Below, in pieces: positions 1 through 62,308 of a stretch of DNA of 64,000 nt. The stretch is taken from assembly GCA_964016885.1 (NCBI GenBank), contig OZ024741.1, forward strand, positions 51,274,001 to 51,338,000, written 5' to 3'. The notes under the pieces are model-generated. The model saw nothing but the letters and a program-made list of their open reading frames with translations, searched no databases and was not told where the DNA came from. Made by a program: the position numbers and the translations under genes. Numbering within the stretch: position 1 is the stretch's first letter; every line of letters starts with the position of its first letter. The DNA is from Eledone cirrhosa. Taxonomy: Eukaryota.

Positions 1-89
1 ATTAAAATCAACTGACAACTAAAGAGGTACTCTTAATCATTAATTATCTGATTTGAAGTACCACTTTAGTTGTCAATTGATTTTTTAAA

Positions 90-690
90 AATTCCCACCC
101 ACCTTTCAACATACTGGTTGGAAGGCAGCATTTCCCTCTTCACTCTGAATTTTCTTTTCAGGTGAAACTTAAAAAGTTAATCAGGGCTTCACTGAAGAAG
201 AAAGTGTTTATCTTCAATCCTTTCAAGCGCGTCCACCACAAGACCTCTTTCTCCATCACCACCAGGCAGATAAAAACAGCCTGCCCTTCCCCTCTAATGG
301 TCACAGTTGATAGTCGGATCCATTCCACACGTGACAGCAGGTGTTCGACGTAAACCCACAAGTCAGCAATACTCGAACACTGGACGAGTGCGTGCAGGAC
401 GGTTTCGTCGCCCTGCGCGCATCTCAGACAGGCCCGGCTGATGGCACTTCAATGCCTATGAAGTTTATCTCGAACTAGTAAAGCTCCTTGGTAGCACCGC
501 AGGCCAGGGATTTCTGAAAGTTATACATGAGCCCTGGACTGAAAGAGTGACTAGCTGATTTTCGTCAACCCCAGAGTCTCTTCAACAACGTCGTCGTTTT
601 TACCCACCACTAAACCTCCATAAAAAGCCAAGCCAAGGTGGAGTTTCAACCGATCGTACTTCCTGATTGGCTGAGGGCTGTGAGTACTTG
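90..690 (-). mobile_element. Decayed 3' end of a Tx1/L1-type LINE ORF2 (zf-RVT zinc knuckle)
   Basis: Minus-strand translation CYQGALLVRDKLHRH*SAISRACLRCAQGDETVLHALVQCSSIADLWVYVEHLLSR...KEVLWWTRLKGL contains the CxxC..ET..H...C motif of L1/Tx1 ORF2 C-termini; stop and frameshift present. Confidence 0.75.
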
Positions 691-1395
691 AAGACATTCC
701 AATTTCTAAGGTACTTTTGGTCAAGTGGGCAAAATTTTGTGTTTGGGTAGTCACATAGTGCCTACGTACCACCGTGGGTCTCGGATGTTACCCTAGATGT
801 ATTCATTTTTTAAGTATTTATATTAGCGATGTTTCTAGCCAGGTTAGGTGCGGTGGAGTAGGAATTCCTAACAGTATTTCAATTGGGGTGGTGTAATATT
901 TGTGCTGTGTGGAGAAATACTTCTTAAAAAAGGTGAAAACCTTTTCAGTTATTGGTATGGACACTTTAAATGGTAGTTATACCAACTTATTTGTCTACGC
1001 CTATTTCGGTTAGGAGGGTCTGGGTGTGCTTTCTATGTAGGTAACTTGTTTGCCTTAAATCCACGACAGACTAGGGCTTCATTATAGTAGGGAGAGAACT
1101 CACTAAATATGTTCTCGTTGGTCAAGAAAACCGAGATCCAGTGAGATATATTCCTAACGAAGATTTTGTTATATTGGTCAGGTGGTTGGTGTGTATGTTG
1201 ATGTATTTTAGGGACCCATTTGGTTTGTGCTAAGGGTAGTTAAGGGAGGTTGCTAAATCTAAGGTGACATCCAGGAAATGTGCTCTAGAATGTTGTAACA
1301 TACAGCCCAAAGAAACTATGGATAATGATACCGACAAATATTATCTGATTTTCCTGATGATTTCATATGAACGAGACAGATCTAGTCCTGTAGAA

Positions 1396-1484
<89 letters not shown>

Positions 1485-1494
1485 AACCAGTAAG

Positions 1495-1587
1495 ACCCGA
1501 CAGCTGAGCTCAAGCCGTTTCGACGGCTAATTCTGGACTAAATGAACATTTATCCTGGTATTTAAATAGCCGATCTTCTCAAGGGGT
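1495..1587 (-). ncRNA. Type I hammerhead ribozyme, U3:A8 variant (PLE copy 1; one G missing in stem I)
   Basis: ACCCC-UUGAGAA-GA(U)CGGCUA..UAGCCGUC-GAAA-CGGC UUGAGCUCA GCU-GUC-GGGU. Confidence 0.75.
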
Positions 1588-2685
1588 AATTCCATATATG
1601 GTCAAAGTGATTGTCAAAAATCAGTAGTAATTCTGTGGTTGCAAATTAGTAGGGGAGATGGTGGCTAAACCTGCCAGTAGGAGAAAGAGGGGAGGGGGTG
1701 GAGTAGACCCAATCAAGCGTTGGTAGTGCCAGCTACAGCTGGGCATGAGGTCAAAGAAGATACAGGGGAGGGGGAGGGGGAGGAAGTCGGAACGGTAGGT
1801 AGAACAATGGGGGGTAAAAATAGGAAAGAAAAAATACTGAGAGTGAAGAAAAGCAAATAAGTGTAAAGAAAAAATTAAATTCTACGACCTAGGTGTCAGG
1901 CTATTGTTAGGCGAGAATAAAATAAAAAAAGAAAGAAAGAAGTAAATAAATAAATAAATAAATAAATAAGGAAATAAGTAAAAGAACTAGGTGGGACGAA
2001 TTAGGCAAGGACCCTTTTAAGAGGTATAAGTACGTAAATGATACGGTGACTGGTCAACAAAAGGGGCCAAAATACTAAAGAGACTACCACGAAATAAACA
2101 ATAAAGGTTTCCATCCCGGGCCAGCAACGACCCAGTGCAGCAAAGTGAACTTGTACGACATAATAATTCTGAGTCCCGGGAAAAATATATACTAATGCTA
2201 ACTCTAAAAGATCTAAAACAAGCTACATGAAAGTTCGTACGAAATAAAGGTAGAATACGGAGAAATAAGTTCAGAATCCACCCCGCCCAGAAGAAAAGCG
2301 AAGCAAGAAATACTGAAACGAAAAAATAAGGCATAAGTGCCACTAAGAAATATAGAGGGCACAGAGAATAGTGGGAGCGGTCGGAAAAGGGGGGCAAGTA
2401 TCCGGGGTCTAAGCCAACTGCTATAAAGGGCGGAGTCCGCCAAATCTATCAAAGACTAGGGGAGGGGGGAGTGGGGGTACTAAGGCTACATGGGGCCAAA
2501 GGGCAGCCTCGGGTGGGCGAGAAAAGACGCCGACAAAGGAGAAGAGCTGGGGTAGAAGGACAAAGGAGAGAGGGGGGAAGGAAATAAAGGATGCGATAAA
2601 AGAATACAAAGAAGATCTTACGTCTTCCTTGGCAAGCAGGGGTTACCCATTGCAAAATCGGCAACTGGGGTGTTATAGCCCTAGT

Positions 2686-4839
2686 CTACCCCCCCGGGTC
2701 ATTATGGGGTTTGAGGGCGAGGTAAGTCCTACGCAATCCATGTTTACATGCAGTAACCAGTTCATCTTTCTTGTTTAGGAGTTGGTCCGTCGAAAACAGC
2801 ATTTGTAAAGTTTCCTCCGAGCATAAATTGCACGGACGGCGTCCTCCCGTGTAAGAATTGGCTCTGGACAGTAATCTCCAAGTGAGATCATAGGTGATGT
2901 TGTTGTCCTTGAGGTCCCATATGTGGCCCGAAAGTGTAGTGGCGTGACGCCGGGCCGGGTTTCGGAAGGTATGTTTATGTTGGTATAGCCGGGTCTTGAA
3001 GTCACATGCGGTAAGTCCTATATAGGCTTTGTTGGAGGTATCCGTCCTCACGTTGCACTGGTAGATCACATTACGGTCTCTGCATCTATTGTCGAGTGGG
3101 CAAATAGATCTATCCGGGCAGTTACACCTCCTGGTCGGTTCTCCACTGCTATTTAGGTTATTTCTGCCATCGGGGTTGAGTTTTTTGTTGTTAGAGGAGA
3201 CGATGTTTTGTGCGAAGTTTGGTGTAGTGCTGTAAGAGAGTTTGATGGTATTTTTGTTAATTATGTTGTGGTAGCGGTGTTGTAATGGGAAGTGTTTTTC
3301 AATGAGCCTAAAGAATAGTTTCCCGATGGGAGTAGTCACCTCTGCGTTGTGGGGAGGATTGAACCATGTTACATTGCGTGAGCGGCGGTGTCTCCTGCTG
3401 GTTCCGCTAATGGGATCTGGACAGTAGGATATTTCCTCCCGGAAACCACTCCGCTTGAGGGCCTGGTTGTAATAAGGCGCATGTTCATCGAATATCCGCT
3501 CATTAGCTGACAAACGGGATATGCGGAGGGAGATGTTTTTGACCAGGTTGTTTGTGATGTTCCTAGGATGGTTTGATCGGCGGTGGATGTAGTGCAGATT
3601 GTCATTAGGTTTCCTGTATGGGTAGTACAGGTCGTTTTCGAGGTCGAGGGTTACGTCCAGGAAGTTTACTCGGGTCAGGGACGTTTGTAGGGTTATTTTA
3701 AATCCCCAGTCGCGGAAGAATCTGATTAATTGTTTCCGGACCCGATCTGTACTACTGGGGTTGTACCCTTTAAGGGTAAGGAGCCCATCATCACGGTACA
3801 ATCCACCACCGAATGCAGGAAACATATCAGTGAGTTTGGCTATTAGGAATAATCCTATAAGATCAGTGACCTCCGCCGAATCCGTGGCGCCCATGCTGAC
3901 GTCGAAGGGTGAGTCGGGAGCTCTTTTTATCCATTTAGAGTCGTCAAAGAGTAAGACTGTCTTCCTGGCGTGGAGGATGATTTTTCTTTCCTGGTCGGTG
4001 ATGGGCACGAGTGTTTCGGCGAAGTCCAAGGCGGCAGTAAGTAGCGGTAAGGTGATTGAAGCATAGTAGCTCTCTATGTCGAACTGTATGAATTTAGTTT
4101 CTCGTTTATCCTCCATATTGCTGAACCAGGAGATTACTTCCTGGGTGTTGATCCATAGGCTAAGTCGGGTGTGTTGCTTGACTTTTGGTATCACGCGGTC
4201 TAGGATTTTTTTGCTGATTCTCCCTATGTCGGACTTCGTTGGGTTAATAAGCCTGATGGAGGGTTTACGGTCAAAATCGGATTTATGGTCCTTCAGTGTG
4301 AAGTATGGTGTCCGTGGGTCTAGAGGTTCCGTGCGGTCGGCGACCCCGAGGCTGGAGGTGATTTGTTGTCCATCTCGATTTATGTCCTCGATGCAAGAGT
4401 GGTTGGCCTTTTTATAGGTGGAGTTTAGGCTGCTCCTGATCAGTGTGTGGTATCTGTCAGGGTTGACAAAGTATAGGTTCCCAGTTTTATCCGAATGCAC
4501 CATGATGTCATTTGTGTTATCATACTCTGTTAAGTTGCTACGGAGTTTTTGTAGGAATCGGTTGTGTCTGGGTTTAAATTTAATGTTCTTGACCAGTTGG
4601 AAGAGGTCATTCTCGAAGGGTGCGAGCAAGGGGTTCAGGGGCGGAGATTTGTAGGTAATAAATCCGAATCTCTCCTTGGTGCCGAAGTCGTGGTTGTCGC
4701 AATATCTGTCATAGAAAAAAGTTCTCCATCTAAGTCTTTTCGCAAATAGATCAATTTTTTGCGTGAGCATCCGAAGGTAAAGTTTTTTCGGTGGGATTGG
4801 GATGTTCTTGGTAGAGAAGTCAATGTTGTGTTTTCGCAT
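2686..4839 (-). CDS. PLE polyprotein copy 1: reverse transcriptase + CxCx5C linker + C-terminal GIY-YIG endonuclease (717 aa from ATG)
   Basis: Motifs FDIESYYASI (RT A), VSMGATDSAEV (B'), YRDDG (C), NFLDV, CNCPDRSIC linker, VIYQC...KAYIGLT..FKTRLYQH (GIY-YIG), CNLC. ATG at 4839; the upstream TTG extension runs into the ribozyme/tail region. Confidence 0.93.
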   Translation of the reverse strand: MRKHNIDFSTKNIPIPPKKLYLRMLTQKIDLFAKRLRWRTFFYDRYCDNHDFGTKERFGFITYKSPPLNPLLAPFENDLFQLVKNIKFKPRHNRFLQKLRSNLTEYDNTNDIMVHSDKTGNLYFVNPDRYHTLIRSSLNSTYKKANHSCIEDINRDGQQITSSLGVADRTEPLDPRTPYFTLKDHKSDFDRKPSIRLINPTKSDIGRISKKILDRVIPKVKQHTRLSLWINTQEVISWFSNMEDKRETKFIQFDIESYYASITLPLLTAALDFAETLVPITDQERKIILHARKTVLLFDDSKWIKRAPDSPFDVSMGATDSAEVTDLIGLFLIAKLTDMFPAFGGGLYRDDGLLTLKGYNPSSTDRVRKQLIRFFRDWGFKITLQTSLTRVNFLDVTLDLENDLYYPYRKPNDNLHYIHRRSNHPRNITNNLVKNISLRISRLSANERIFDEHAPYYNQALKRSGFREEISYCPDPISGTSRRHRRSRNVTWFNPPHNAEVTTPIGKLFFRLIEKHFPLQHRYHNIINKNTIKLSYSTTPNFAQNIVSSNNKKLNPDGRNNLNSSGEPTRRCNCPDRSICPLDNRCRDRNVIYQCNVRTDTSNKAYIGLTACDFKTRLYQHKHTFRNPARRHATTLSGHIWDLKDNNITYDLTWRLLSRANSYTGGRRPCNLCSEETLQMLFSTDQLLNKKDELVTACKHGLRRTYLALKPHNDPGG

Positions 4840-5024
4840 GGTGCGGGTGAAATGAATTGAGCTTAGCGGAAAAGTCTGGATACGGCGTGGTAGGGTCGGA
4901 AAGTGCTCTACTACGGGAGTAGGAGCTAGATAACGAAGGAAATGTGGTAAGGAACCAGGTGGACCATAACGCACCAAAGTACTCAATACTTGAGGTAGTA
5001 GAGTGGGTAATAGGAACCAGTAAG

Positions 5025-5118
5025 ACCCCGACAGCTGAGCTCAAGCCGTTTCGACGGCTAATTCTGGACTAAATGAACATTTATCCTGGTATTTAAATAG
5101 CCGATCTTCTCAAGGGGT
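5025..5118 (-). ncRNA. Type I hammerhead ribozyme, U3:A8 variant (PLE copy 2)
   Basis: Stem I ACCCC/GGGGU, core UUGAGAA, stem II GA.CGGCUA/UAGCCG.UC with an internal hairpin, GAAA, stem III ACGGC/GCUGU with palindromic loop UGAGCUCA; predicted cut after GUC, between 5030 and 5029. Confidence 0.85.
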
Positions 5119-6213
5119 AATTCCATATATGGTCAAAGTGATTGTCAAAAATCAGTAGTAATTCTGTGGTTGCAAATTAGTAGGGGAGATGGTGGCTAAA
5201 CCTGCCAGTAGGAGAAAGAGGGGAGGGGGTGGAGTAGACCCAATCAAGCGTTGGTAGTGCCAGCTACAGCTGGGCATGAGGTCAAAGAAGATACAGGGGA
5301 GGGGGAGGGGGAGGAAGTCGGAACGGTAGGTAGAACAATGGGGGGTAAAAATAGGAAAGAAAAAATACTGAGAGTGAAGAAAAGCAAATAAGTGTAAAGA
5401 AAAAATTAAATTCTACGACCTAGGTGTCAGGCTATTGTTAGGCGAGAATAAAATAAAAAAAGAAAGAAAGAAGTAAATAAATAAATAAATAAATAAATAA
5501 GGAAATAAGTAAAAGAACTAGGTGGGACGAATTAGGCAAGGACCCTTTTAAGAGGTATAAGTACGTAAATGATACGGTGACTGGTCAACAAAAGGGGCCA
5601 AAATACTAAAGAGACTACCACGAAATAAACAATAAAGGTTTCCATCCCCGGCCAGCAACGACTCAGTGCAGCAAAGTGAACTTGTACGACATAATAATTC
5701 TGAGTCCCGGGAAAAATATATACTAATGCTAACTCTAAAAGATCTAAAACAAGCTACATGAAAGTTCGTACGAAATAAAGGTAGAATACGGAGAAATAAG
5801 TTCAGAATCCACCCCGCCCAGAAGAAAAGCGAAGCAAGAAATACTGAAACGAAAAAATAAGGCATAAGTGCCACTAAGAAATATAGAGGGCACAGAGAAT
5901 AGTGGGAGCGGTCGGAAAAGGGGGGCAAGTATCCGGGGTCTAAGCCAACTGCTATAAAGGGCGGAGTCCGCCAAATCTATCAAAGACTAGGGGAGGGGGG
6001 AGTGGGGGTACTAAGGCTACATGGGGCCAAAGGGCAGCCTCGGGTGGGCGAGAAAAGACGCCGACAAAGGAGAAGAGCTGGGGTAGAAGGACAAAGGAGA
6101 GAGGGGGGAAGGAAATAAAGGATGCGATAAAAGAATACAAAGATCTTACGTCTTCCTTGGCAAGCAGGGGTTACCCATTGCAAAATCGGCAACTGGGGTG
6201 TTATAGCCCTAGT

Positions 6214-8367
6214 CTACCCCCCCGGGTCATTATGGGGTTTGAGGGCGAGGTAAGTCCTACGCAATCCATGTTTACATGCAGTAACCAGTTCATCTTTCTT
6301 GTTTAGGAGTTGGTCCGTCGAAAACAGCATTTGTAAAGTTTCCTCCGAGCATAAATTGCACGGACGGCGTCCTCCCGTGTAAGAATTGGCTCTGGACAGT
6401 AATCTCCAAGTGAGATCATAGGTGATGTTGTTGTCCTTGAGGTCCCATATGTGGCCCGAAAGTGTAGTGGCGTGACGCCGGGCCGGGTTTCGGAAGGTAT
6501 GTCTATGTTGGTATAGCCGGGTCTTGAAGTCACATGCGGTAAGTCCTATATAGGCTTTGTTGGAGGTATCCGTCCTCACGTTGCACTGGTAGATCACATT
6601 ACGGTCTCTGCATCTATTGTCGAGTGGGCAAATAGATCTATCCGGGCAGTTACACCTCCTGGTCGGTTCTCCACTGCTATTTAGGTTATTTCTGCCATCG
6701 GGGTTGAGTTTTTTGTTGTTAGAGGAGACGATGTTTTGTGCGAAGTTTGGTGTAGTGCTGTAAGAGAGTTTGATGGTATTTTTGTTAATTATGTTGTGGT
6801 AGCGGTGTTGTAATGGGAAGTGTTTTTCAATGAGCCTAAAGAATAGTTTCCCGATGGGAGTAGTCACCTCTGCGTTGTGGGGAGGATTGAACCATGTTAC
6901 ATTGCGTGAGCGGCGGTGTCTCCTGCTGGTTCCGCTAATGGGATCTGGACAGTAGGATATTTCCTCCCGGAAACCACTCCGCTTGAGGGCCTGGTTGTAA
7001 TAAGGCGCATGTTCATCGAATATCCGCTCATTAGCTGACAAACGGGATATGCGGAGGGAGATGTTTTTGACCAGGTTGTTTGTGATGTTCCTAGGATGGT
7101 TTGATCGGCGGTGGATGTAGTGCAGATTGTCATTAGGTTTCCTGTATGGGTAGTACAGGTCGTTTTCGAGGTCGAGGGTTACGTCCAGGAAGTTTACTCG
7201 GGTCAGGGACGTTTGTAGGGTTATTTTAAATCCCCAGTCGCGGAAGAATCTGATTAATTGTTTCCGGACCCGATCTGTACTACTGGGGTTGTACCCTTTA
7301 AGGGTAAGGAGCCCATCATCACGGTACAATCCACCACCGAATGCAGGAAACATATCAGTGAGTTTGGCTATTAGGAATAATCCTATAAGATCAGTGACCT
7401 CCGCCGAATCCGTGGCGCCCATGCTGACGTCGAAGGGTGAGTCGGGAGCTCTTTTTATCCATTTAGAGTCGTCAAAGAGTAAGACTGTCTTCCTGGCGTG
7501 GAGGATGATTTTTCTTTCCTGGTCGGTGATGGGCACGAGTGTTTCGGCGAAGTCCAAGGCGGCAGTAAGTAGCGGTAAGGTGATTGAAGCATAGTAGCTC
7601 TCTATGTCGAACTGTATGAATTTAGTTTCTCGTTTATCCTCCATATTGCTGAACCAGGAGATTACTTCCTGGGTGTTGATCCATAGGCTAAGTCGGGTGT
7701 GTTGCTTGACTTTTGGTATCACGCGGTCTAGGATTTTTTTGCTGATTCTCCCTATGTCGGACTTCGTTGGGTTAATAAGCCTGATGGAGGGTTTACGGTC
7801 AAAATCGGATTTATGGTCCTTCAGTGTGAAGTATGGTGTCCGTGGGTCTAGAGGTTCCGTGCGGTCGGCGACCCCGAGGCTGGAGGTGATTTGTTGTCCA
7901 TCTCGATTTATGTCCTCGATGCAAGAGTGGTTGGCCTTTTTATAGGTGGAGTTTAGGCTGCTCCTGATCAGTGTGTGGTATCTGTCAGGGTTGACAAAGT
8001 ATAGGTTCCCAGTTTTATCCGAATGCACCATGATGTCATTTGTGTTATCATACTCTGTTAAGTTGCTACGGAGTTTTTGTAGGAATCGGTTGTGTCTGGG
8101 TTTAAATTTAATGTTCTTGACCAGTTGGAAGAGGTCATTCTCGAAGGGTGCGAGCAAGGGGTTCAGGGGCGGAGATTTGTAGGTAATAAATCCGAATCTC
8201 TCCTTGGTGCCGAAGTCGTGGTTGTCGCAATATCTGTCATAGAAAAAAGTTCTCCATCTAAGTCTTTTCGCAAATAGATCAATTTTTTGCGTGAGCATCC
8301 GAAGGTAAAGTTTTTTCGGTGGGATTGGGATGTTCTTGGTAGAGAAGTCAATGTTGTGTTTTCGCAT
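6214..8367 (-). CDS. PLE polyprotein copy 2 (RT + GIY-YIG), 717 aa
   Basis: Same as copy 1 except HKH>HRH; ORF intact. Confidence 0.93.
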   Translation of the reverse strand: MRKHNIDFSTKNIPIPPKKLYLRMLTQKIDLFAKRLRWRTFFYDRYCDNHDFGTKERFGFITYKSPPLNPLLAPFENDLFQLVKNIKFKPRHNRFLQKLRSNLTEYDNTNDIMVHSDKTGNLYFVNPDRYHTLIRSSLNSTYKKANHSCIEDINRDGQQITSSLGVADRTEPLDPRTPYFTLKDHKSDFDRKPSIRLINPTKSDIGRISKKILDRVIPKVKQHTRLSLWINTQEVISWFSNMEDKRETKFIQFDIESYYASITLPLLTAALDFAETLVPITDQERKIILHARKTVLLFDDSKWIKRAPDSPFDVSMGATDSAEVTDLIGLFLIAKLTDMFPAFGGGLYRDDGLLTLKGYNPSSTDRVRKQLIRFFRDWGFKITLQTSLTRVNFLDVTLDLENDLYYPYRKPNDNLHYIHRRSNHPRNITNNLVKNISLRISRLSANERIFDEHAPYYNQALKRSGFREEISYCPDPISGTSRRHRRSRNVTWFNPPHNAEVTTPIGKLFFRLIEKHFPLQHRYHNIINKNTIKLSYSTTPNFAQNIVSSNNKKLNPDGRNNLNSSGEPTRRCNCPDRSICPLDNRCRDRNVIYQCNVRTDTSNKAYIGLTACDFKTRLYQHRHTFRNPARRHATTLSGHIWDLKDNNITYDLTWRLLSRANSYTGGRRPCNLCSEETLQMLFSTDQLLNKKDELVTACKHGLRRTYLALKPHNDPGG

Positions 8368-8552
8368 GGTGCGGGTGAAATGAATTGAGCTTAGCGGAAA
8401 AGTCTGGATACGGCGTGGTAGGGTCGGAAAGTGCTCTACTACGGGAGTAGGAGCTAGATAACGAAGGAAATGTGGTAAGGAACCAGGTGGACCATAACGC
8501 ACCAAAGTACTCAATACTTGAGGTAGTAGAGTGGGTAATAGGAACCAGTAAG

Positions 8553-8646
8553 ACCCCGACAGCTGAGCTCAAGCCGTTTCGACGGCTAATTCTGGACTAA
8601 ATGAACATTTATCCTGGTATTTAAATAGCCGATCTTCTCAAGGGGT
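8553..8646 (-). ncRNA. Type I hammerhead ribozyme, U3:A8 variant (PLE copy 3)
   Basis: Same sequence as 5025-5118. Confidence 0.85.
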
Positions 8647-9741
8647 AATTCCATATATGGTCAAAGTGATTGTCAAAAATCAGTAGTAATTCTGTGGTTG
8701 CAAATTAGTAGGGGAGATGGTGGCTAAACCTGCCAGTAGGAGAAAGAGGGGAGGGGGTGGAGTAGACCCAATCAAGCGTTGGTAGTGCCAGCTACAGCTG
8801 GGCATGAGGTCAAAGAAGATACAGGGGAGGGGGAGGGGGAGGAAGTCGGAACGGTAGGTAGAACAATGGGGGGTAAAAATAGGAAAGAAAAAATACTGAG
8901 AGTGAAGAAAAGCAAATAAGTGTAAAGAAAAAATTAAATTCTACGACCTAGGTGTCAGGCTATTGTTAGGCGAGAATAAAATAAAAAAAGAAAGAAAGAA
9001 GTAAATAAATAAATAAATAAATAAATAAGGAAATAAGTAAAAGAACTAGGTGGGACGAATTAGGCAAGGACCCTTTTAAGAGGTATAAGTACGTAAATGA
9101 TACGGTGACTGGTCAACAAAAGGGGCCAAAATACTAAAGAGACTACCACGAAATAAACAATAAAGGTTTCCATCCCCGGCCAGCAACGACTCAGTGCAGC
9201 AAAGTGAACTTGTACGACATAATAATTCTGAGTCCCGGGAAAAATATATACTAATGCTAACTCTAAAAGATCTAAAACAAGCTACATGAAAGTTCGTACG
9301 AAATAAAGGTAGAATACGGAGAAATAAGTTCAGAATCCACCCCGCCCAGAAGAAAAGCGAAGCAAGAAATACTGAAACGAAAAAATAAGGCATAAGTGCC
9401 ACTAAGAAATATAGAGGGCACAGAGAATAGTGGGAGCGGTCGGAAAAGGGGGGCAAGTATCCGGGGTCTAAGCCAACTGCTATAAAGGGCGGAGTCCGCC
9501 AAATCTATCAAAGACTAGGGGAGGGGGGAGTGGGGGTACTAAGGCTACATGGGGCCAAAGGGCAGCCTCGGGTGGGCGAGAAAAGACGCCGACAAAGGAG
9601 AAGAGCTGGGGTAGAAGGACAAAGGAGAGAGGGGGGAAGGAAATAAAGGATGCGATAAAAGAATACAAAGATCTTACGTCTTCCTTGGCAAGCAGGGGTT
9701 ACCCATTGCAAAATCGGCAACTGGGGTGTTATAGCCCTAGT

Positions 9742-11895
9742 CTACCCCCCCGGGTCATTATGGGGTTTGAGGGCGAGGTAAGTCCTACGCAATCCATGTT
9801 TACATGCAGTAACCAGTTCATCTTTCTTGTTTAGGAGTTGGTCCGTCGAAAACAGCATTTGTAAAGTTTCCTCCGAGCATAAATTGCACGGACGGCGTCC
9901 TCCCGTGTAAGAATTGGCTCTGGACAGTAATCTCCAAGTGAGATCATAGGTGATGTTGTTGTCCTTGAGGTCCCATATGTGGCCCGAAAGTGTAGTGGCG
10001 TGACGCCGGGCCGGGTTTCGGAAGGTATGTCTATGTTGGTATAGCCGGGTCTTGAAGTCACATGCGGTAAGTCCTATATAGGCTTTGTTGGAGGTATCCG
10101 TCCTCACGTTGCACTGGTAGATCACATTACGGTCTCTGCATCTATTGTCGAGTGGGCAAATAGATCTATCCGGGCAGTTACACCTCCTGGTCGGTTCTCC
10201 ACTGCTATTTAGGTTATTTCTGCCATCGGGGTTGAGTTTTTTGTTGTTAGAGGAGACGATGTTTTGTGCGAAGTTTGGTGTAGTGCTGTAAGAGAGTTTG
10301 ATGGTATTTTTGTTAATTATGTTGTGGTAGCGGTGTTGTAATGGGAAGTGTTTTTCAATGAGCCTAAAGAATAGTTTCCCGATGGGAGTAGTCACCTCTG
10401 CGTTGTGGGGAGGATTGAACCATGTTACATTGCGTGAGCGGCGGTGTCTCCTGCTGGTTCCGCTAATGGGATCTGGACAGTAGGATATTTCCTCCCGGAA
10501 ACCACTCCGCTTGAGGGCCTGGTTGTAATAAGGCGCATGTTCATCGAATATCCGCTCATTAGCTGACAAACGGGATATGCGGAGGGAGATGTTTTTGACC
10601 AGGTTGTTTGTGATGTTCCTAGGATGGTTTGATCGGCGGTGGATGTAGTGCAGATTGTCATTAGGTTTCCTGTATGGGTAGTACAGGTCGTTTTCGAGGT
10701 CGAGGGTTACGTCCAGGAAGTTTACTCGGGTCAGGGACGTTTGTAGGGTTATTTTAAATCCCCAGTCGCGGAAGAATCTGATTAATTGTTTCCGGACCCG
10801 ATCTGTACTACTGGGGTTGTACCCTTTAAGGGTAAGGAGCCCATCATCACGGTACAATCCACCACCGAATGCAGGAAACATATCAGTGAGTTTGGCTATT
10901 AGGAATAATCCTATAAGATCAGTGACCTCCGCCGAATCCGTGGCGCCCATGCTGACGTCGAAGGGTGAGTCGGGAGCTCTTTTTATCCATTTAGAGTCGT
11001 CAAAGAGTAAGACTGTCTTCCTGGCGTGGAGGATGATTTTTCTTTCCTGGTCGGTGATGGGCACGAGTGTTTCGGCGAAGTCCAAGGCGGCAGTAAGTAG
11101 CGGTAAGGTGATTGAAGCATAGTAGCTCTCTATGTCGAACTGTATGAATTTAGTTTCTCGTTTATCCTCCATATTGCTGAACCAGGAGATTACTTCCTGG
11201 GTGTTGATCCATAGGCTAAGTCGGGTGTGTTGCTTGACTTTTGGTATCACGCGGTCTAGGATTTTTTTGCTGATTCTCCCTATGTCGGACTTCGTTGGGT
11301 TAATAAGCCTGATGGAGGGTTTACGGTCAAAATCGGATTTATGGTCCTTCAGTGTGAAGTATGGTGTCCGTGGGTCTAGAGGTTCCGTGCGGTCGGCGAC
11401 CCCGAGGCTGGAGGTGATTTGTTGTCCATCTCGATTTATGTCCTCGATGCAAGAGTGGTTGGCCTTTTTATAGGTGGAGTTTAGGCTGCTCCTGATCAGT
11501 GTGTGGTATCTGTCAGGGTTGACAAAGTATAGGTTCCCAGTTTTATCCGAATGCACCATGATGTCATTTGTGTTATCATACTCTGTTAAGTTGCTACGGA
11601 GTTTTTGTAGGAATCGGTTGTGTCTGGGTTTAAATTTAATGTTCTTGACCAGTTGGAAGAGGTCATTCTCGAAGGGTGCGAGCAAGGGGTTCAGGGGCGG
11701 AGATTTGTAGGTAATAAATCCGAATCTCTCCTTGGTGCCGAAGTCGTGGTTGTCGCAATATCTGTCATAGAAAAAAGTTCTCCATCTAAGTCTTTTCGCA
11801 AATAGATCAATTTTTTGCGTGAGCATCCGAAGGTAAAGTTTTTTCGGTGGGATTGGGATGTTCTTGGTAGAGAAGTCAATGTTGTGTTTTCGCAT
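9742..11895 (-). CDS. PLE polyprotein copy 3 (RT + GIY-YIG), 717 aa
   Basis: Translation matches copy 2; ORF intact; the unit is truncated ~35 nt upstream of the ATG by the inversion. Confidence 0.93.
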   Translation of the reverse strand: MRKHNIDFSTKNIPIPPKKLYLRMLTQKIDLFAKRLRWRTFFYDRYCDNHDFGTKERFGFITYKSPPLNPLLAPFENDLFQLVKNIKFKPRHNRFLQKLRSNLTEYDNTNDIMVHSDKTGNLYFVNPDRYHTLIRSSLNSTYKKANHSCIEDINRDGQQITSSLGVADRTEPLDPRTPYFTLKDHKSDFDRKPSIRLINPTKSDIGRISKKILDRVIPKVKQHTRLSLWINTQEVISWFSNMEDKRETKFIQFDIESYYASITLPLLTAALDFAETLVPITDQERKIILHARKTVLLFDDSKWIKRAPDSPFDVSMGATDSAEVTDLIGLFLIAKLTDMFPAFGGGLYRDDGLLTLKGYNPSSTDRVRKQLIRFFRDWGFKITLQTSLTRVNFLDVTLDLENDLYYPYRKPNDNLHYIHRRSNHPRNITNNLVKNISLRISRLSANERIFDEHAPYYNQALKRSGFREEISYCPDPISGTSRRHRRSRNVTWFNPPHNAEVTTPIGKLFFRLIEKHFPLQHRYHNIINKNTIKLSYSTTPNFAQNIVSSNNKKLNPDGRNNLNSSGEPTRRCNCPDRSICPLDNRCRDRNVIYQCNVRTDTSNKAYIGLTACDFKTRLYQHRHTFRNPARRHATTLSGHIWDLKDNNITYDLTWRLLSRANSYTGGRRPCNLCSEETLQMLFSTDQLLNKKDELVTACKHGLRRTYLALKPHNDPGG

Positions 11896-12051
11896 GGTGC
11901 GGGTGAAATGAATTGAGCTTAGCGGAAAAGTCGAAACGGCTTGAGCTCAGCTGTCGGGGTCTTACTGGTTCCTATTACCCACTCTACTACCTCAAGTATT
12001 GAGTACTTTGGTGCGTTATGGTCCACCTGGTTCCTTACCACATTTCCTTCG

Positions 12052-12110
<59 letters not shown>

Positions 12111-12504
12111 CCTACATAGAAAGCACACCCAGACCCTCCTAACCGAAATAGGCGTAGACAAATAAGTTGGTATAACTACCATTTCAAGTGCCCATACCAA
12201 TAACTGCACCACCTAAGAGAACATTAGTCTACGACTTCTTTTATACCATAAACGTGGTTCTGTCTTTGCGTGTAATTCTTTTTCACCGCTCCAAATAATG
12301 AAGTATTATATTCGTTTTTTCCCCGTTCTTTGCCAGGGAACGTTTCCACGAACCAAAGTATCGTCTTCCTGTCTTCCTCCGGTTGCAACGTTTTTTGAAA
12401 TATTCACTTCTGTGTTCACAGATTGACTTTGTTAGTTTCAGAAGATCTCGTTAAGGGTGAAAGCAGCGATTCTTTGCTTAAACTTTAATCTGTTATTTTA
12501 ATAA

Positions 12505-12539
<35 letters not shown>

Positions 12540-12556
12540 AAACAACCGAAGTTGGA

Positions 12557-12698
12557 TTCGGGGTCCAGTTATGGCCACCACTGTATAATGGAGGAGTCAC
12601 TTTTAAACTGACCCTTCATTCAGGCACGTGTCTGAATGAAGGGCCAGGTTAAAAGTGCCTCTTCCATTATACAGTGATGGCCACAACTGGACCCCGAA
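12557..12698. repeat. ~140-bp imperfect palindrome, probable PLE terminal fold-back
   Basis: TTCGGGGTCCAGTT...TTCAGGCACGTGTCTGAA...AACTGGACCCCGAA; followed by GAAAC-CATTG-GTA and ATTGAGCACT; next to (TA)n. Confidence 0.75.
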
Positions 12699-13576
12699 AC
12701 CATTGGTAGCGCATACATGTTAAGTGTATAAAACTTTGTTTATACTATATAAGCTCTCTCCCAACAGATTGAGCACTGTTTTCCTTGATCTTTCATCTAC
12801 GGATTTCTACCAACTTATATGTGTGTGTGTGTGTAAGTACCTGTGTGTGTCTGTGTGTCTCTGTATGTGTGTGTGCATGTGACATGAACATATATTAGGA
12901 AACATGGACACATGCCTTCATCACCACGATGTTTGTGTATTAAAAATAGGATGGTTTACTCCAGTGCAACAGGGATTCCAAACACAAGAGGAGACAGCCT
13001 GCGGTAAAATAAAATAGAGAGAGTTTATTCGACTAAGTTCACACTAAACAATATAACGTACAAACCCAGGCTGCTCCGACGTAAAACCAACTGTAATAAC
13101 AAGGTAGAGTGTACAAGTTAGCCAGGAGTTAATGGAGAGGGGAAAAAATATTTTCGGACATTGATCCTTGAAAAGACAGCAAAAAAGCGAAGTGAATAAT
13201 GTATTGTCTGCAACCTTCTGAGAATAAGTGACATTGGGGTGACGTGGAGTTAAGAATAAAGGAGGAGAAAGGAATAGATTGAAGGAGTAAGGGAAAAAGA
13301 AGAAATGAGAAAGTAAGAGATAAAGAAAGAGAGGAATAGAAATAGAGAAGAGATCGCAGGTAATGTTAATACTATATAAATATCCATATATATATATATA
13401 TCACGGCAGGTATGGGTTGGTCACGGTTTGGGATGAAATGTGTTAACTTTTCGCACCATTGAGTGCTTTGCGACCGCCTCAAAAAATTCGATTAGTATCT
13501 ATCTGCTATACTGTGGCTACAACTTCGATACCCAATATTATACACACACACACATATATATATACGTATATATATA

Positions 13577-13613
<37 letters not shown>

Positions 13614-13827
13614 GTGTTTATATATATATATATATCCGTATGTGATTGTGATTGACGGTTGAGAGAAAAGAGTACTCAATACCGAAGTAGAGTTTTAATA
13701 TTCAGTTTCACCTATCACAGGGTCATCTGATGACCCTGTGATAAAGAGGCGAAACTCCAGATTAACAACACTCACTATTTAGCCTGAATAAATGTGTATA
13801 TATATATATATATGTGTGTGTAGAGAG

Positions 13828-13907
<80 letters not shown>

Positions 13908-14309
13908 TTCCAGCGTTAACCTGTTGCACACTTTACAAAGACTTTTCAATTTTTTTTCTGAATTCAATCACAACTTTGTTGTTTATTAATAACTCTGTTT
14001 TTGGTGAAAGACTCCTGTAAATTTTCCTGTCCATTCTTTGATGTGACATTGTCAAATGAGGAGCCAGTCGCAATCCAAACAGCACAAAATTATAAACATT
14101 AACTTAAAAAGTATAACATAGAAGAGTATAATACATAACATAGAATTACATTGGTTAAATAAAACTTATTGAAATTTCATCTCAACTGTGTAATTTTTTT
14201 CCTCTTTCGTGGAAAAAATATTGGTCCATCGTGCTCATTCCCGATTTTCTTCTCTTCTCTTTCATCCATGATTGAGATTCCTACAATTTTGTGATATATA
14301 TATGTATAC

Positions 14310-14368
<59 letters not shown>

Positions 14369-14872
14369 GCGGGTTCAACCGGGGATAACCACAGTAAGTA
14401 AGGTACTCAATACATAGCAGAGTATAAATATTGAATATAGAAATGGCTTCTACGGGACCAGAACTGTTTCATTCAAAGGAAACAGTTCTGGTCCTGTATT
14501 GTATATCTGCGCCATCTTTATTTAATCTGTTTATTTATTTATTTATTTTTGTCTTCTCTCTCGCATGCGTTTGCGTGTGTGTATAGTGTTTGGTGTGTGT
14601 TCGCGTTTGGGTGACTGTGTTTTGGTTATTGTATTCTATCTTAGTTTACTAGTGTGTGTGTATATGTGTTTGTTGTTATTGTGCTTGTGTATATATTTAT
14701 TTATTTATCTATATTTCTCTTAGATCAGTATTGTTTGTTTTGGGTGTTGTTGTTATTCCATTCATTTTTTCTGTTTAGCTTTGGCTTTCTAATTTGCCTA
14801 TCTGCTGGGTCATTTCTATGTTTAAATATTATTTTAATTTCTATGTTGTCTATGTTACCGTGATGTTGTTTT

Positions 14873-15725
14873 CTAGCGTGTTCGTATAGTCCTTTTAGTT
14901 CCCCCCCCCCCCCAGTGTTGGTCTATCCTTTCACCTATGCTACGAGCTGTCTCGCCTATGTTTATTATTGTCATGTTTCTGCAAGTACCCTCTGTACATC
15001 TTATGTTATAGACTACGTTTCTAGTCTTTGGTTGTAGCCAGAGAACTGCATGCAGTTGATGAAGTGTTGGATGTGTCTTTCCGTTTCTGTTGGGTCGCAC
15101 ATGCGGGACACGTTCTTCATCACTCGTACCAAGTCTGCGATCAGAATATTAAACTTAGCACTACTGGACATTGCTGAGTTTTTGAGTATCAGGTATTTGG
15201 AGGCCATGGGTTTAGCGTAGTGTGAGTGGAGAATTTGGGCCCTCTCGTCTATTGTGTTAATCCAGAGTTCCGTGTCTAATACAGGTAGTCTACTGTTAGG
15301 GTGTTTGGAAGGGTAGTCGATAGTTACAGTTATACTCTGGTGTATGGAATTAGCTATCTGCTGGATGCTTTCCATTGTGCTACATTCTAAATCATACTTG
15401 TTAGTACTCTCTTGTGAGGGTGTCCTTATTACTATATTAATGTCGTCTACGTAACGAGAGTAGATGATGAGGTCTATGGAGCTCTCATCAAGGAGATCTT
15501 TGAGTCTCCTTAGCCACCATACCATTAAAAGGTTGGCAACGTCACCAGCTATGCTGACGTCAATGGCTGCTCCCTCATTTTGGGTGTAGATCTTCTCGTT
15601 GAATTTGAATATGTGGCCCTTTGGGGTAGTTTTAATACTAGCCCCTATTGCATATGCGACCATTTTTCTTACCTGATCATTGTCTTTGGGGGTTCGTATG
15701 GCTTTTATCCACCCAATCCACACAA
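14873..15725 (-). pseudogene. Internally deleted PLE fragment (RT palm/thumb plus GIY-YIG remnant), Nematis-like
   Basis: YTQNEGAAID..VANLLMVWW...RYVDD...DYPSKHPNSRLPVLDTELW...HYAKPMAS, then in another frame VVYNIRCTEGTC..NIGETARSIGER. Clade call is from motif recall only. Confidence 0.8.
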
Positions 15726-15934
15726 TCCACATATATATATACGCCCTAATTTTGACAACCGAACATTTGAAAAAAAAATAATAAACAATCTTCGGCCTCC
15801 AGGGCGCATGGTAGAATTTTGAGACTTGTTTTAGCAAAAGAGTAGCGTCTTCGACGCCTGGAAATACGGTGTGTACATATATATATATAGTGAAGAAACA
15901 TAAGTCAATTGCATGAACTCATAATCCTTTATTT

Positions 15935-15990
15935 ACTGCTATATATATTTCGATGATAGTCATTGAATGGCTATGACCTCATCAGGCAGT
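15935..15990 (-). ncRNA. Minimal type I hammerhead ribozyme
   Basis: ACUGC-CUGAUGA-GGUCAUAG..CUAUCAUC-GAAA-U AUAU AUA-GCAGU; perfect 5-bp stem I, AUA triplet. Confidence 0.8.
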
Positions 15991-16681
15991 TAGTCAGTTC
16001 TTAGATATGCCAGCTCTGTGTTTATAGTGTTGATGGTGTCAGAGCCTTGGGACATATGAGCTTGTTAGAAATAATTTAATGCTGTCAGCAGGAATAGTCT
16101 TAATTCTCATTGGTCAGTTTGTAGATGCTAGTAGGGTTGGTATTTGACCTCAAAGAGGCAGGTGGTGTTGTAAAGTTCAAACCGTCAGGCAAGATGACAA
16201 TAGTTCCATATGACTGATTTTCACAAAAAGCATTCCTGGTCAGATATATATTCAATTGAGGTTAATAGTATGAAATAGATACTACAGGTCATTCTTAAAT
16301 TGGGGAATTTATGTGGAGTGGTGCTACTCAAAATTATGGTTAGAGTAGAATACTAGAAAATTTACAAATAAAAAGACTTATGTAGGTTGGCTTGCACGTA
16401 CACTCACACCCACCTCCACAGACACACACACACATCCACACATACAAATTGAGGAATTAATGTGGGGTGGTAATACTTAAAATAATGGTTAGAGTCAAAT
16501 ACTTAGTTTATATATATATATGTACTTGAGAGTGATGTATTTATCTCTCCAGAGTGGTTTCCGTTTAGCAAGTGCTGTGGCTGTTAGTGCATTCCTTGCA
16601 AGGACCTCTGGCTTTGATCTCCCTTCACTGATGATGGCACCAAGGTACTGGAACTACATCACGGTCTCCCGCTCTTGATCA

Positions 16682-17089
16682 TTGACGTTGGTCATGTCCA
16701 TTTTTAAACACGCATGCGAGTCATGGATCCTAACTACTGAACTGCAAAGAAAGATCCAAGCAGTGGAGAGGAAAAGAATGACCCAGCATGAGAGCCACTT
16801 TGCAGTTCTGTTGACCACGATGAAGAGGGGGGAGCTGAGCTGGTATGGACATATAACAAGATCAGACAGACTCGCAAAGATGATTCTCCAGGGAACAGTG
16901 CGGGGGGAGAGAAAGCGAGGAAGCCAGAGGAGGCGGTGGATAGATAACATAGCTGAGTGGGCAGGAAAGAACTTTGCCACAACCCAAGTAGTCGTCCATG
17001 ACCATCAGAGATGGAACCAGTTGGTACAATGTTCAACAGTGCACTGTCCCAACGACCCCAAAAAGGGTTAGGTGACCATGATGATGATG

Positions 17090-17090
<1 letters not shown>
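16682..17090 (+). mobile_element. 3' end of an RTE-clade LINE with (GAT)n tail
   Basis: ACESWILT..LQRKIQA...LSWYGHITR..RLAKMILQGTVRGERKRGSQRRRWIDNI.EW, followed by ATGATGATGATG. Confidence 0.85.
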
Positions 17091-17163
<73 letters not shown>

Positions 17164-17181
17164 GTTTATATATATATATAT

Positions 17182-17240
<59 letters not shown>

Positions 17241-18395
17241 CATACATAGATACATACATGATATGTGAGTCCTGGGTCCAATCTTTCGTTGCTTAATTAT
17301 TTTTTATTTTTCGTTTTCTTCTTATTCTTTTTTTTTTTTGTTTCCTTATTGCCAATTTTATTATACAATTTTTATGACATTTTCCATCTGAATAACTTTG
17401 AAAATATTTACTTTTTCGAGTCCGGGATTATATATATATATTGTTTTGTCCTTTTACTGGTTTCAGCGCGTTCAATAGTTTTTAATCGATTATATTTATC
17501 TTGATATTTATATCAGTCTGATACTCTGTTCTATCGATCTCTATATACCAGGCGGCTAAGTTTTACCATGTCCATCAATCTACCTCCTTTGACAGAGCTA
17601 ATGATAAAATAAAATATTCATGACTGATATCTATAAATTTCAAAAGTATGATTGTGTCGTTTTTGTAGCTATCAATCTTTGATCTCTGCTTTAAGATGGG
17701 AACTAGTACAATATATTTATGGTTTCCATATAATTTGCACTGGTGATACTCTCGTTGCTTTGTGTTTTTCGTGCGACTTGTGAAAGTAAATATGACCTTA
17801 TTTTACCCAGTTGATCTTTCAGCTACTATCATTGATTGTGGCATTCTAATTACTCCCAGCATTCTCTAAACCCCTAACACTCAAATGAACAAAAGCAGAC
17901 GACATGACGATCCATAAACTTTAGCTGACAGCTATGCTGAGAATAAAATGATAATGACAATAAAAAGAGCAGATTATCAGACGTGATAAAAAAAAATTGA
18001 GACTGCTTACGACATGGAGACAATAAGTTTATTTTTAATGTTTTAATCAAATAAAGCAAAGTTGTCTTTAAATGAGATGGGAAGTTGGATAATTAGAATT
18101 ATAATTGAAGTATAATGGCGACTGAATTGTGGTTTTTTTGACAAAGTGGCTTGTATGATAAACAGTTTATGGTAAAGATTATAAAAAAAATTAGATGCAT
18201 TAAATTGTTTTAATAGGACAGATAGACACGCCGATGGCGTGTCTATCTAAGTATTCTGTAATTACTTATATATATATATATTATTTTACTCTTTTGCTGA
18301 TTTCAGTCATTAGAATCCGACCAGGCTGGAGCACCGACTTGATTTTTTTCAAGTCTGATACGAGCTGCAACAAACATATATGGACATAAACATTA

Positions 18396-18431
<36 letters not shown>

Positions 18432-18539
18432 TTATATATATATATATATATTGCTAGTCTGCGGTACTGAGACCGAGAAGACTCCAAATCAAACAAGTAT
18501 TCGATACATAGATGCAGAGTGAGTATATTAGTGAAAGTA

Positions 18540-18800
18540 AAAGATTGACCGCGAGCTCGGTGGTTTCGGCTAGTTACCTTTTCTGTAACTAGATCCTCCA
18601 CTTTCACTAAAATATAAGCTGTATCGGCCATTGCCTTTCCCTTGGACAACATCTTTAGCGTGGAAAGAGGAGACTTGTATGCATGGGTGACTGCTGGTCT
18701 TTCATAAATAACCTTGCCCGGACTAGTGCCTCAGAGAGGAACTTTCTAGGTGCAAATCCCGTGGTCAATCGTGACCGGCGGGGTCTTTAGCCTTTACTGT
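18540..18800 (+). mobile_element. Probable short interspersed repeat
   Basis: Complex non-coding sequence (AACCTTGCCCGGACT..GTGCCTC..AACTTTCTAGGTGCAA.TCCC) recalled as an abundant cephalopod repeat; only one copy in this window. Confidence 0.35.
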
Positions 18801-19506
18801 ATATACGAAAAGTATATCGATATACAATAATCATAAAATGTATTTCAGGGATTTACAATAAACATTCCTCACTAAACTTTTAAATAAAACAAAATATTTT
18901 TTTATGATATCTATGTCTTGAAATCTAGAGAATATGATCTGGACAAAAATGAAGAAAAAACGAAAGATTTTGCAAATGCAATTTCTTCAATTACTCCTTT
19001 TTTTAACGCTAGCTGTAAACCTTAACTGTAAACCCTAATCCTAATGACTAAATTCTATTCCTAACCAGCGTTGACTCATCTATGGCAGGGCTTTCCAAAC
19101 TTTTTCAAACGTGGAACCTCTTTTGGTTCTGAAACTTTGGGGAAACCCCAAAGTCTAATACTGTTATATGGTCGTAATATAAATATACTCCTCTACTTTT
19201 TTTCATGGAACCCCAGACACTCCTTCCATAGGATTCCTTGGGTTCTACAGAACCCACTTTGGGAACAACTGTTCTATGGAATTAAGGAAGCTTATGTTTC
19301 AGGGGTCCTAATCCCATAAAGATTCCAGAAGCAACTTATTGTCATGTTGCTGCTCAATAGACGCTGGCTGCAAAGGAGTTCCAATAACAGTTGAAAATTC
19401 ATATAGGCATCGTAGACACATTCTACATACGGGCACAATAGTGTCTTATTTGGCTAGCTTTTATATTCACTAGGTGAGAGCGACATCTCCCTCTTTCTGT
19501 CACAAA

Positions 19507-19585
<79 letters not shown>

Positions 19586-19819
19586 AACAAATGACGTTCT
19601 TTTTCTCTCTCTATTTATCTACATCTCTTTCGCTTGGTGCTCTCCCTCTCTCTATATATATGAGGGTGACGTCGTAACTTTCTGTCTATCTACCTCTTTC
19701 TGTCACCTTGAAAACACACAACGTTCCTTTTTCTCTCTCTAGCTATGTATATATATATATATATCTCACTTGGCGTTGCCACTCTTTATATAAAGTGAGA
19801 GTGACAGATAGACAGATAG

Positions 19820-20110
19820 AATGTTTTGCAGTATTCGTTTCGGCTTTCTGCTCTCTCAGTTCAAATCCCGTCAAGGTCAACTTTCCCTTTCATTCTTTCG
19901 AGGTCGATAAAAAAAGTACCAGTTCAGTACTGGGATTGATTCTTCCTCTGTATCTCTTTCCTTTCACTTTCTATCCTTCTCTGGAAGAAATCTCCTTTAT
20001 TCAGACTTGGAGAGAAGAGATGGGCTCCGCCGTGTTTAGAGATGTCCTAGAAAGGCGTGTATGTCAATACGGTGCCTCTACGACTCCGACGGGAGTTATG
20101 GGACCATACG
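19820..20110 (+). mobile_element. tRNA-derived SINE, long-tailed subfamily
   Basis: B-box GTTCAAATCC followed by GGTCAACTTT.CCTTTCAT.CTTTCGAGGTCGATAAAA..AAGTACCAGT; the 3' part matches reverse copies at 58140-58680 and 60350-60655. Confidence 0.75.
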
Positions 20111-61998: not shown

Positions 61999-62042
<44 letters not shown>

Positions 62043-62308
62043 AGAAAGTATGACCCCGATGGCAGAGCTCAAGCCGTTTCGACGGCTATTTCTGGACTAA
62101 ACTAATTTTGAGATAGAGTGCTCGGGATTTTTTTAAATTCACGAGCACTCTATCTCAAAATTATTTTTGAAAAGCATAAGAAATGCGCAACAGGTAAAAA
62201 CTTAGAACTAAAACTGAATACTAACTAATATTTATTACTAATTTATACTTATTCCTAATTAAACTATTTTTCACTGGGAAAAATTTGTCAGCATTTTCTT
62301 TTCAATTT

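Follow-up and report, generated by a model that had tools for sequence, protein, structure and literature searches.

How a Penelope-like element (PLE) comes to be copied further than once around its own length, and what its hammerhead ribozyme contributes to this copying, is the question raised by a locus of Eledone cirrhosa (assembly GCA_964016885.1, contig OZ024741.1, positions 51,274,001 to 51,338,000 of the forward strand; these 64,000 nucleotides are the window throughout). Three head-to-tail units of an element with a single reverse transcriptase (RT) open reading frame (ORF) stand there in (TA)n, and an earlier note on this DNA had read them as three equal units, multiplied by rolling reverse transcription of a circularized unit-length RNA. 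The array is one head-to-head insertion, one arm of which is very long. In the account that we favor, with a probability of roughly 0.55, the two arms were copied separately, a circular unit RNA was followed about twice, and the third unit was added by a later local duplication.

Positions in the element are counted from +1 (8557), the first base after the predicted GUC cut, with minus values upstream of the cut, and arms are named after their start sites, +18 or +99. The array contains the following features (aa, amino acids).

12053..12106, no strand: (TA)n target repeat, outside the inverted arm
11930..12054, plus strand: inverted arm, -26 to +99 relative to the cut, 125 nt, whose outer end is the family's +99 start site
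11930..11932: head-to-head junction between the two arms, with GAC microhomology
8558..11932, minus strand: unit A, 5'-truncated, unit positions 154-3528, identical to unit B over 3375 nt
9742..11895, minus strand: ORF A, 717 aa, RT-CxCx5C-GIY-YIG, lacking an upstream ribozyme or predicted start motif
8541..8654, minus strand: hammerhead between A and B, type I, U3-A8 core, palindromic stem III loop, cut at 8558/8557
8596..8627, minus strand: predicted core promoter in loop II, TATTTAAA at -70 and initiator-like TTAGT with its A at -41 (8598)
A at -45 (8602), minus strand: second motif of the predicted core promoter, TCATTT, putative in function
8459..8540, minus strand: internal 'tail' copy between start sites +18 (8540) and +99 (8459)
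5030..8557, minus strand: unit B, complete, cut to cut, 3528 nt
6214..8367, minus strand: ORF B, 717 aa, with a structure model and telomerase RT (TERT) as top fold match
5013..5126, minus strand: hammerhead between B and C, cut at 5030/5029
1499..5029, minus strand: unit C, complete, 3531 nt, unlike A and B at 2975, 2613-2615, 2132 and 2118
2686..4839, minus strand: ORF C, 717 aa, with a single R>K difference
1483..1595, minus strand: terminal hammerhead, stem I short by one G, cut site at 1499/1498
1401..1482, no strand: (TA)n then (GA)n target repeat, outside the long arm

The three 717-aa ORFs that the earlier note had called intact are indeed uninterrupted on the minus strand (11895-9742, 8367-6214 and 4839-2686), and its placement of the insertion inside (TA)n is borne out by repeats on both flanks (12053-12106 and 1429-1482). 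Its three equal 3.53-kb units stand as regards the period, which is 3528/3531 nt, but the first of them is 5'-truncated and preceded by the inverted arm: unit A starts at unit position 154 (11932), 37 nt before its ATG, and its upstream ribozyme is absent, while the inverted arm (11930-12054) holds just the 3' half of one. Three hammerheads are present, as the count of one per unit had implied; unit A, however, has none upstream and the last lacks one G, so that wild-type ribozymes lie on both sides of unit B only. Unit C runs through +1..+18 and then into TA, the element thus ending at the +18 start site, 18 nt beyond the cut site rather than at the cut. The promoter-like motifs of loop II recur near 5070 and 1539.

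The rest of the argument is drawn from the family to which the array belongs. In the 3.0-Gb genome, 17 of 4161 candidates were scored and yielded 18 full units, 97.8-99.7% identical, and the 717-aa ORF is present in 27 of 44 full units examined (717-721 aa in 34 of 44), which supports, at the level of the family, the view of a young element. Exact ends number 7,184 at +18 and 21,604 at +99 genome-wide, a 3:1 excess that probably comes from subfamily variation at +18; other exact counts are 2,092 ribozyme 5' halves, 575 copies of a marker lying ~400 nt before the cut and 306 read-throughs beyond +99. Family sequence occurs in all four sequencing runs compared with window positions 8600-12050. 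Over the same interval, the contig depth of run X5 is much more skewed to the 3' untranslated region (UTR) than that of X1 or X4.

Most of the insertions examined are head-to-head minis of ~190 bp, in which a +18 arm and a +99 arm both face out into TA. To compare such arms, 80 stretches were retrieved, 20 picked for a nearby +99 end and 60 in list order. Where the junction lies near the cut, the +18 arm is partnered by a longer-tailed arm in 42 of 45 cases. The +99 arm carries sequence absent from the +18 arm, while the +18 arm extends >6 nt further upstream than its partner in 13 of 62 clean pairs; with such unequal reach neither arm can have been copied from the other by fold-back, and it is likely that reverse transcription made the two arms independently, one at each cut end of the target. 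This pairing of two start sites matches the behavior in vitro of PAc, the Poseidon element of Anolis carolinensis, which starts at two internal sites and extends both strands of its target (Frangieh et al. 2024, PMC11167929). Head-to-head PLE junctions have also been read as self-priming, the second arm folding back on the same molecule (PMC3846280). Palindromic junctions and variants common to both arms would suit such an origin, which we nevertheless regard as very improbable, given that each arm can hold sequence the other lacks (largely excluding it for the 13 of 62 pairs) and that the inverted arm of the window is not adjacent to the end of the long arm in unit coordinates (-26 versus 154).

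Other head-to-head copies were seen. Loci L001 and L003 (G000:C13:21.72 Mb) are two full units in this arrangement whose arms differ at the family polymorphism 445 C/T, which suggests derivation from two different RNA molecules. The window itself has a mini-insertion of the same family at 30857-31038, made of head-to-head +18 and +99 arms, and further family fragments at 47836-47871 and 62038-62101.

The points at which short arms stop are not scattered. Out of 61 +18 arms taken in list order, 43 stop at -46 to -34, 5 at -3 to +2, 8 beyond -46 and 5 elsewhere; when all 83 arms are considered, the mode is -41 and no stop falls between -47 and -74. Around the A at -41, T(T/C)AGT is kept in 15/16 aligned copies, and we take this to be an initiator motif. 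From these footprints we infer a candidate transcription start at -41/-45, inside loop II of the ribozyme, and an RNA begun there would carry an incomplete 5' ribozyme. A pseudo-long terminal repeat (pseudo-LTR) with a TATA-plus-initiator pair was noted in PMC3846280. A 3' splice site or trans-splicing at -39 was considered as the source of the -41 stops and ruled out, the junctions carrying no extra exon or leader sequence.

A second accumulation is found at the cut. Junctions with both arms ending near it number 255 genome-wide, and we analyzed 45 among 50 listed. Unambiguous stops near the cut fall exactly at +1 in 31 of 46 cases, often with 1-3 added A/T; both arms end at +1 with added bases (mostly A/T) in 12 of the 45 junctions, and 8 more are blunt and ambiguous. 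A pile-up at +1 is the trace expected from run-off at a 5' end made by the ribozyme, and lends indirect support to the predicted cleavage at GUC.

Some arms jump back. At eight loci (L072, L087, L090, L094, L106, L108, L048 and L049) they stop near -40, resume at +150 to +320 (once at +918) and end again near -40 or at +1. Mini-tandems of 299 bp (L044:1285-3522) and 257 bp (L045:967-1673), made from ~-42 to +220 of the unit, form retrozyme-like repeats devoid of the ribozyme 5' half. A second start site was considered at unit positions 2525-2548, where several upstream partials begin; a C-rich run adjoins it, and many partials reach further.

Long arms behave in another way. By hand we classed 24 of 40 read-through sites as long arms, the remaining 16 being short jump-backs or unclear, and none of the 24 stops at -46 to -34 on its second lap, compared with 43/61 on the first (Fisher p=4e-10): 21 pass, and the other three stop at +27, +13 and +1. 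Insertions with two long arms make up 26 of 58, versus ~7% expected if the arms were independent (hand count over the first 100 of 575 rows). Variant sites were compared in 24 single-unit insertions, 18 of which have an aligned inverted arm, with indels masked: 40 sites are common to the full unit, the upstream partial and the inverted arm (17 of these from copies at >=99%), 1 is found in the full unit and inverted arm only, 1 links just the full unit and the partial, and 35 more are private. The context of the unit junction is exact in 82/88. A ligated unit RNA has no 5' end, so arms can exceed one lap on it, and second-lap passage, paired long arms and shared variants together support, for the family, the copying of a unit-length RNA without ends that the earlier note had envisaged; we hold it somewhat more probable than otherwise that the long arms were copied from such a circle.

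The sequence of events would then be the following. A promoter in loop II of the ribozyme would start the RNA at -41/-45, and the hammerhead, as the DNA footprints suggest, would cut at GUC. One cDNA begins at +18 and the other at +99, presumably primed there. Where the RNA begins at -41 or +1, the two cDNAs would run off its 5' end and join, giving the common palindromic minis of 120-190 bp, while on a unit RNA whose cut ends had been ligated the arms would exceed one lap and rebuild the pseudo-LTR. In the window, the +18 arm would have covered 1.96 laps and the +99 arm stopped at -26, with unequal crossover later making the trimer. A broader reading, which we put forward tentatively and to which we give slightly less than even odds, sees the hammerhead as both promoter site and cleavage switch: priming from the two target ends would take place on a single RNA, at +18 and +99, while linear RNAs would end as thousands of dead-end palindromic minis, and only the ribozyme-circularized 3.5-kb coding RNA would give full copies and the pseudo-LTR.

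Long arms could also arise from linear, uncut read-through RNA of multi-unit master arrays, the ribozyme merely trimming or disabling transcripts. PAc uses unprocessed multi-copy RNA in vitro (PMC11167929), arrays do exist here (6 among the first 100 of 306 marker sites), and at three sites, one in locus L017 and two in the array at C1:377.7 Mb, alleles are common to the last unit and the inverted arm and absent from the upstream copies, as a linear multi-unit template would leave them. Since in 6/6 arrays the last unit is not identical to every upstream unit, this route predicts frequent last-unit-only variants in daughters, where a single such site stands against the 40 common to all segments; the A/B haplotype of the window array has no daughter in the genome, and just two of 32 upstream-partial starts coincide (at 2548, though the copies belong to different subfamilies), which means that donor junctions do not pass to daughters. 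We therefore consider the linear route unlikely. Slightly more doubtful still is a strand transfer that dispenses with a covalent circle, in which the cDNA leaving the RNA at -41 re-anneals to the identical 41 nt at the 3' end of the cut RNA, the ends of the same molecule perhaps being held together by the two ribozyme halves. These halves can pair in a two-strand fold (-29 kcal/mol), the mechanism yields exact junctions and homogeneous laps, and mis-jumps from ~-40 to +150..+320, of the kind that makes the 257-bp and 299-bp mini-tandems, are common; yet the second transfer would nearly always have to work (0/24 stops) while the first usually failed (43/61 stops), and both arms would have to transfer together.

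Several further observations weigh against the circle. Every RNA step in our account is read from DNA footprints, and the -41 stops might reflect a block by protein or structure instead of an RNA end. PAc needs no ribozyme cutting in vitro, and no RNA-seq reads end at its cut (PMC11167929). Subfamily differences may account for 23 of the 40 shared sites, which come from older copies; locus L091 has 7 changes confined to its upstream partial, and the beginnings of contigs C1 and C2 supplied most of the samples. Each unit of the array at C1:377.7 Mb has independent private changes, and some primary insertions may exceed two laps. The two arms of the window are themselves discordant, one long and one short. 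As to the ribozyme, core position 3, opposite A8, is U in 10/16 and C in 6/16 aligned copies (across subfamilies), which speaks against strict conservation of the core.

How the window came to hold a third unit is a separate matter. Three changes (340C, 2291G and 3100T) occur in all three units and in no other aligned copy, placing them in one lineage. A equals B over 3375 nt, whereas C differs from them by 3 substitutions and a 3-nt indel: three changes set A and B apart from C and from every other copy compared, and one substitution, together with the lost G, is private to C. The two-substitution A/B haplotype occurs twice genome-wide, that is, in units A and B, and the 3-nt deletion allele is less diagnostic than the two substitutions, since it is present at 4 further places, including an older subfamily copy. 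As all discriminating sites lie within unit positions 2055-2909, an unequal crossover in 154-2054 of a 1.96-unit dimer would give exactly this pattern, and a near-complete dimer followed by a local duplication that added the third unit is the likely history. Units differ from one another by ~0.15%, part of which may be RT error, so that no firm age follows. Among five other arrays (first 100 of 306 marker rows), two are ABAB, one is window-like, one is its mirror and one is apparently primary; patterns of duplication are thus seen in 4 of the 5.

The trimer by rolling reverse transcription that had been proposed in the earlier note is therefore not supported. One continuous pass through all three units would explain 340C, 2291G and 3100T, and one other array does look like a primary insertion of 2.4 units; a primary multimer of this kind should carry independent private changes only, while at this locus A and B share three derived changes absent from C, and a switch to a second RNA would call for a donor with the A/B haplotype, of which the assembly holds none. 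We judge this origin quite improbable. Improbable too, though to a lesser degree, is that the third unit is an assembly duplication of a true dimer. A and B show zero differences and no record listed for the four sequencing runs (window 8600-12050) spans the array, but unit-specific variants stand in ABAB order in other arrays, meaning that real expansions occur in this genome; the A/B variants, being private, were not imported from other loci. At the arm junction of a tetramer elsewhere (L032-L033, G000:C1:91489170-91492740) there are ~65 copies of a 55-bp ORF piece (unit positions 1714-1771).

The ribozyme on which the preferred account depends was recognized by motif and fold. The unit junctions fold as type I hammerheads with GUC cuts at 8558/8557 and 5030/5029: stem I is ACCCC/GGGGU plus a distal helix to +17, followed by the core UUGAGAA, stem II with its long loop, GAAA, stem III with a palindromic loop, and GUC. 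An Rfam scan of window positions 1-20000, up to E=1, matched microsatellite look-alikes only and no hammerhead. Compared with the canonical CUGANGA, the core is a U3-A8 variant, described previously in PLEs of Schistosoma (Cercyon elements; PMC4209133). The terminal ribozyme has GUC-GGG in place of GUC-GGGG, and the hammerhead is not its lowest-energy fold.

The assignment to the Hydra clade of PLEs, made in the earlier note, is supported by protein motifs and by the predicted fold. The ORF carries RWR (37), a conservative change from the RWK of the clade; DKT (117), the change from DKG that marks it; YRDD; CNCPDRSIC, that is, CxCx5C (572); and, indicating a C-terminal GIY-YIG endonuclease (EN) on motif evidence, IYQ...YIG (592-608). 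Its sole CxxC is CNLC at 670, followed by EE, N and CKH at 698, and there is no CCHH; the clade is defined by RW(R/K), DKT, CxCx5C, and CxxC plus CxH around a conserved E and N (PMC8557442). A Pfam scan of the 717-aa ORF matched no family, and a protein search returned 2050 matches, of which the 120 listed have 38-54% identity and are essentially nameless, giving no clade label. The structure model of ORF B, from an alignment of 116 sequences, has a predicted local distance difference test score (pLDDT) of 93, and its top two PDB matches in Foldseek are TERTs (3du5 and 9swn; E ~3e-8, TM 0.33), with a small lead over other RTs. The partial tandem, the inverted 5' copy and the tail at one end only are as expected of PLEs, and the (TA)n preference is to be read knowing that the end patterns themselves demanded TA, so that only TA targets were counted. 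Membership in the Hydra clade is thus a motif-based call, with references compared by eye over ~400 residues. The element is new to the clade, its architecture is textbook, and the trimer itself is ordinary.

Comparison with known systems shows what the family has in common with them and where it departs. C-terminal EN+ PLEs of the Hydra clade, such as Hydra-1_Obim (Craig et al. 2021, PMC8557442), have the same single RT-GIY-YIG ORF, motifs, CxxC/CxH and (TA)n target, as well as a hammerhead and a partial tandem with an inverted 5' copy, and over the first 400 residues of Hydra-1_Obim the order and wording of the motifs are, by eye, those of the window ORF. The unit of the window is longer (3.53 kb versus a typical <3 kb) and has a 3' UTR of 1.2 kb, its ribozyme (U3-A8 core, 37-nt loop II, 5-bp stem III, palindromic loop) is unlike the Hydra ribozymes listed in PMC8557442, and its tail measures 81 nt, versus 30-40 nt stated for PLEs, in a family with at least 21,604 ends. 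PAc shares the pair of internal RT starts bounding the tail, the extension on both strands and an AT-rich target; it belongs to another clade, however, its ribozyme overlaps the start codon and no reads are reported there to end at the cut (PMC11167929), whereas in the window family the ATG lies at +191 and genomic arms accumulate at the cut. The pseudo-LTR promoter and the partial tandem between inverted repeats are also found in Penelope of Drosophila virilis (Schostak et al. 2008, PMC2377424), a paper that calls the basis of PLE tandem formation unexplained; in contrast to that element, the window family has a predicted start site inside loop II of the ribozyme, and no intron was seen in it, though none was sought.

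The circle route is not new. Cutting, ligation and copying of more than one unit were proposed in 2014 for PLEs by Cervera and de la Pena (PMC4209133), and the same route is described for non-LTR retrozymes; opposite-strand ribozyme pairs 100-700 bp apart have also been noted in these systems. Circular RNAs have been shown for small non-coding retrozymes only (PMC7229834; bioRxiv 10.64898/2026.07.22.740005), and the window element differs from these in being a 3.5-kb coding unit. Our literature searches, with subscription papers and the supplements of PMC11167929 and PMC4209133 outside their scope, returned no direct evidence of the circle route in an autonomous element. Nor did they return any description of a start site in loop II, or of insertion ends that accumulate where a PLE ribozyme cuts.

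The surroundings of the array contain older relatives. Its flanks (946-1045 and 12107-12206) form a 100-bp inverted repeat, 98% identical, and the left flank (693-1289) is a decayed relative of the ORF at 30% identity; the new element seems to have its place in the microsatellite where the head-to-head arms of an older related element meet. At 38595-40349 (minus strand) there is another Penelope-like ORF, unrelated and 584 aa long, with RVT_1 and weak GIY-YIG Pfam matches and a Cx5CxxC linker, from which we take it to be Neptune-like. The window also has an RT fragment of 239 aa with YVDD (15013-15732, minus strand) and a Hydra-like endonuclease remnant at 32% identity (53682-53909, minus strand). 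A paired-like homeobox exon, presumably aristaless/Arx-like, is embedded in (TA)n at ~35920-36090 on the plus strand, and the element may lie in or near a homeobox gene.

The value of these observations rests with the family and not with the trimer, since a long-open question becomes directly testable. The rebuilding of the pseudo-LTR, the head-to-head inversions and the role of the hammerhead are stated to be open in PMC2377424, PMC8557442 and PMC11167929, and thousands of near-identical insertions now yield predictions at the level of single bases: where RNAs should begin (-41/-45 and +1), where the two cDNAs should be primed, and a circle of 3.53 kb. If the broader reading given above is true, the family would be a genome-scale fossil record of the whole Penelope cycle, and the element an autonomous animal retrotransposon obliged to pass through a viroid-like circle.

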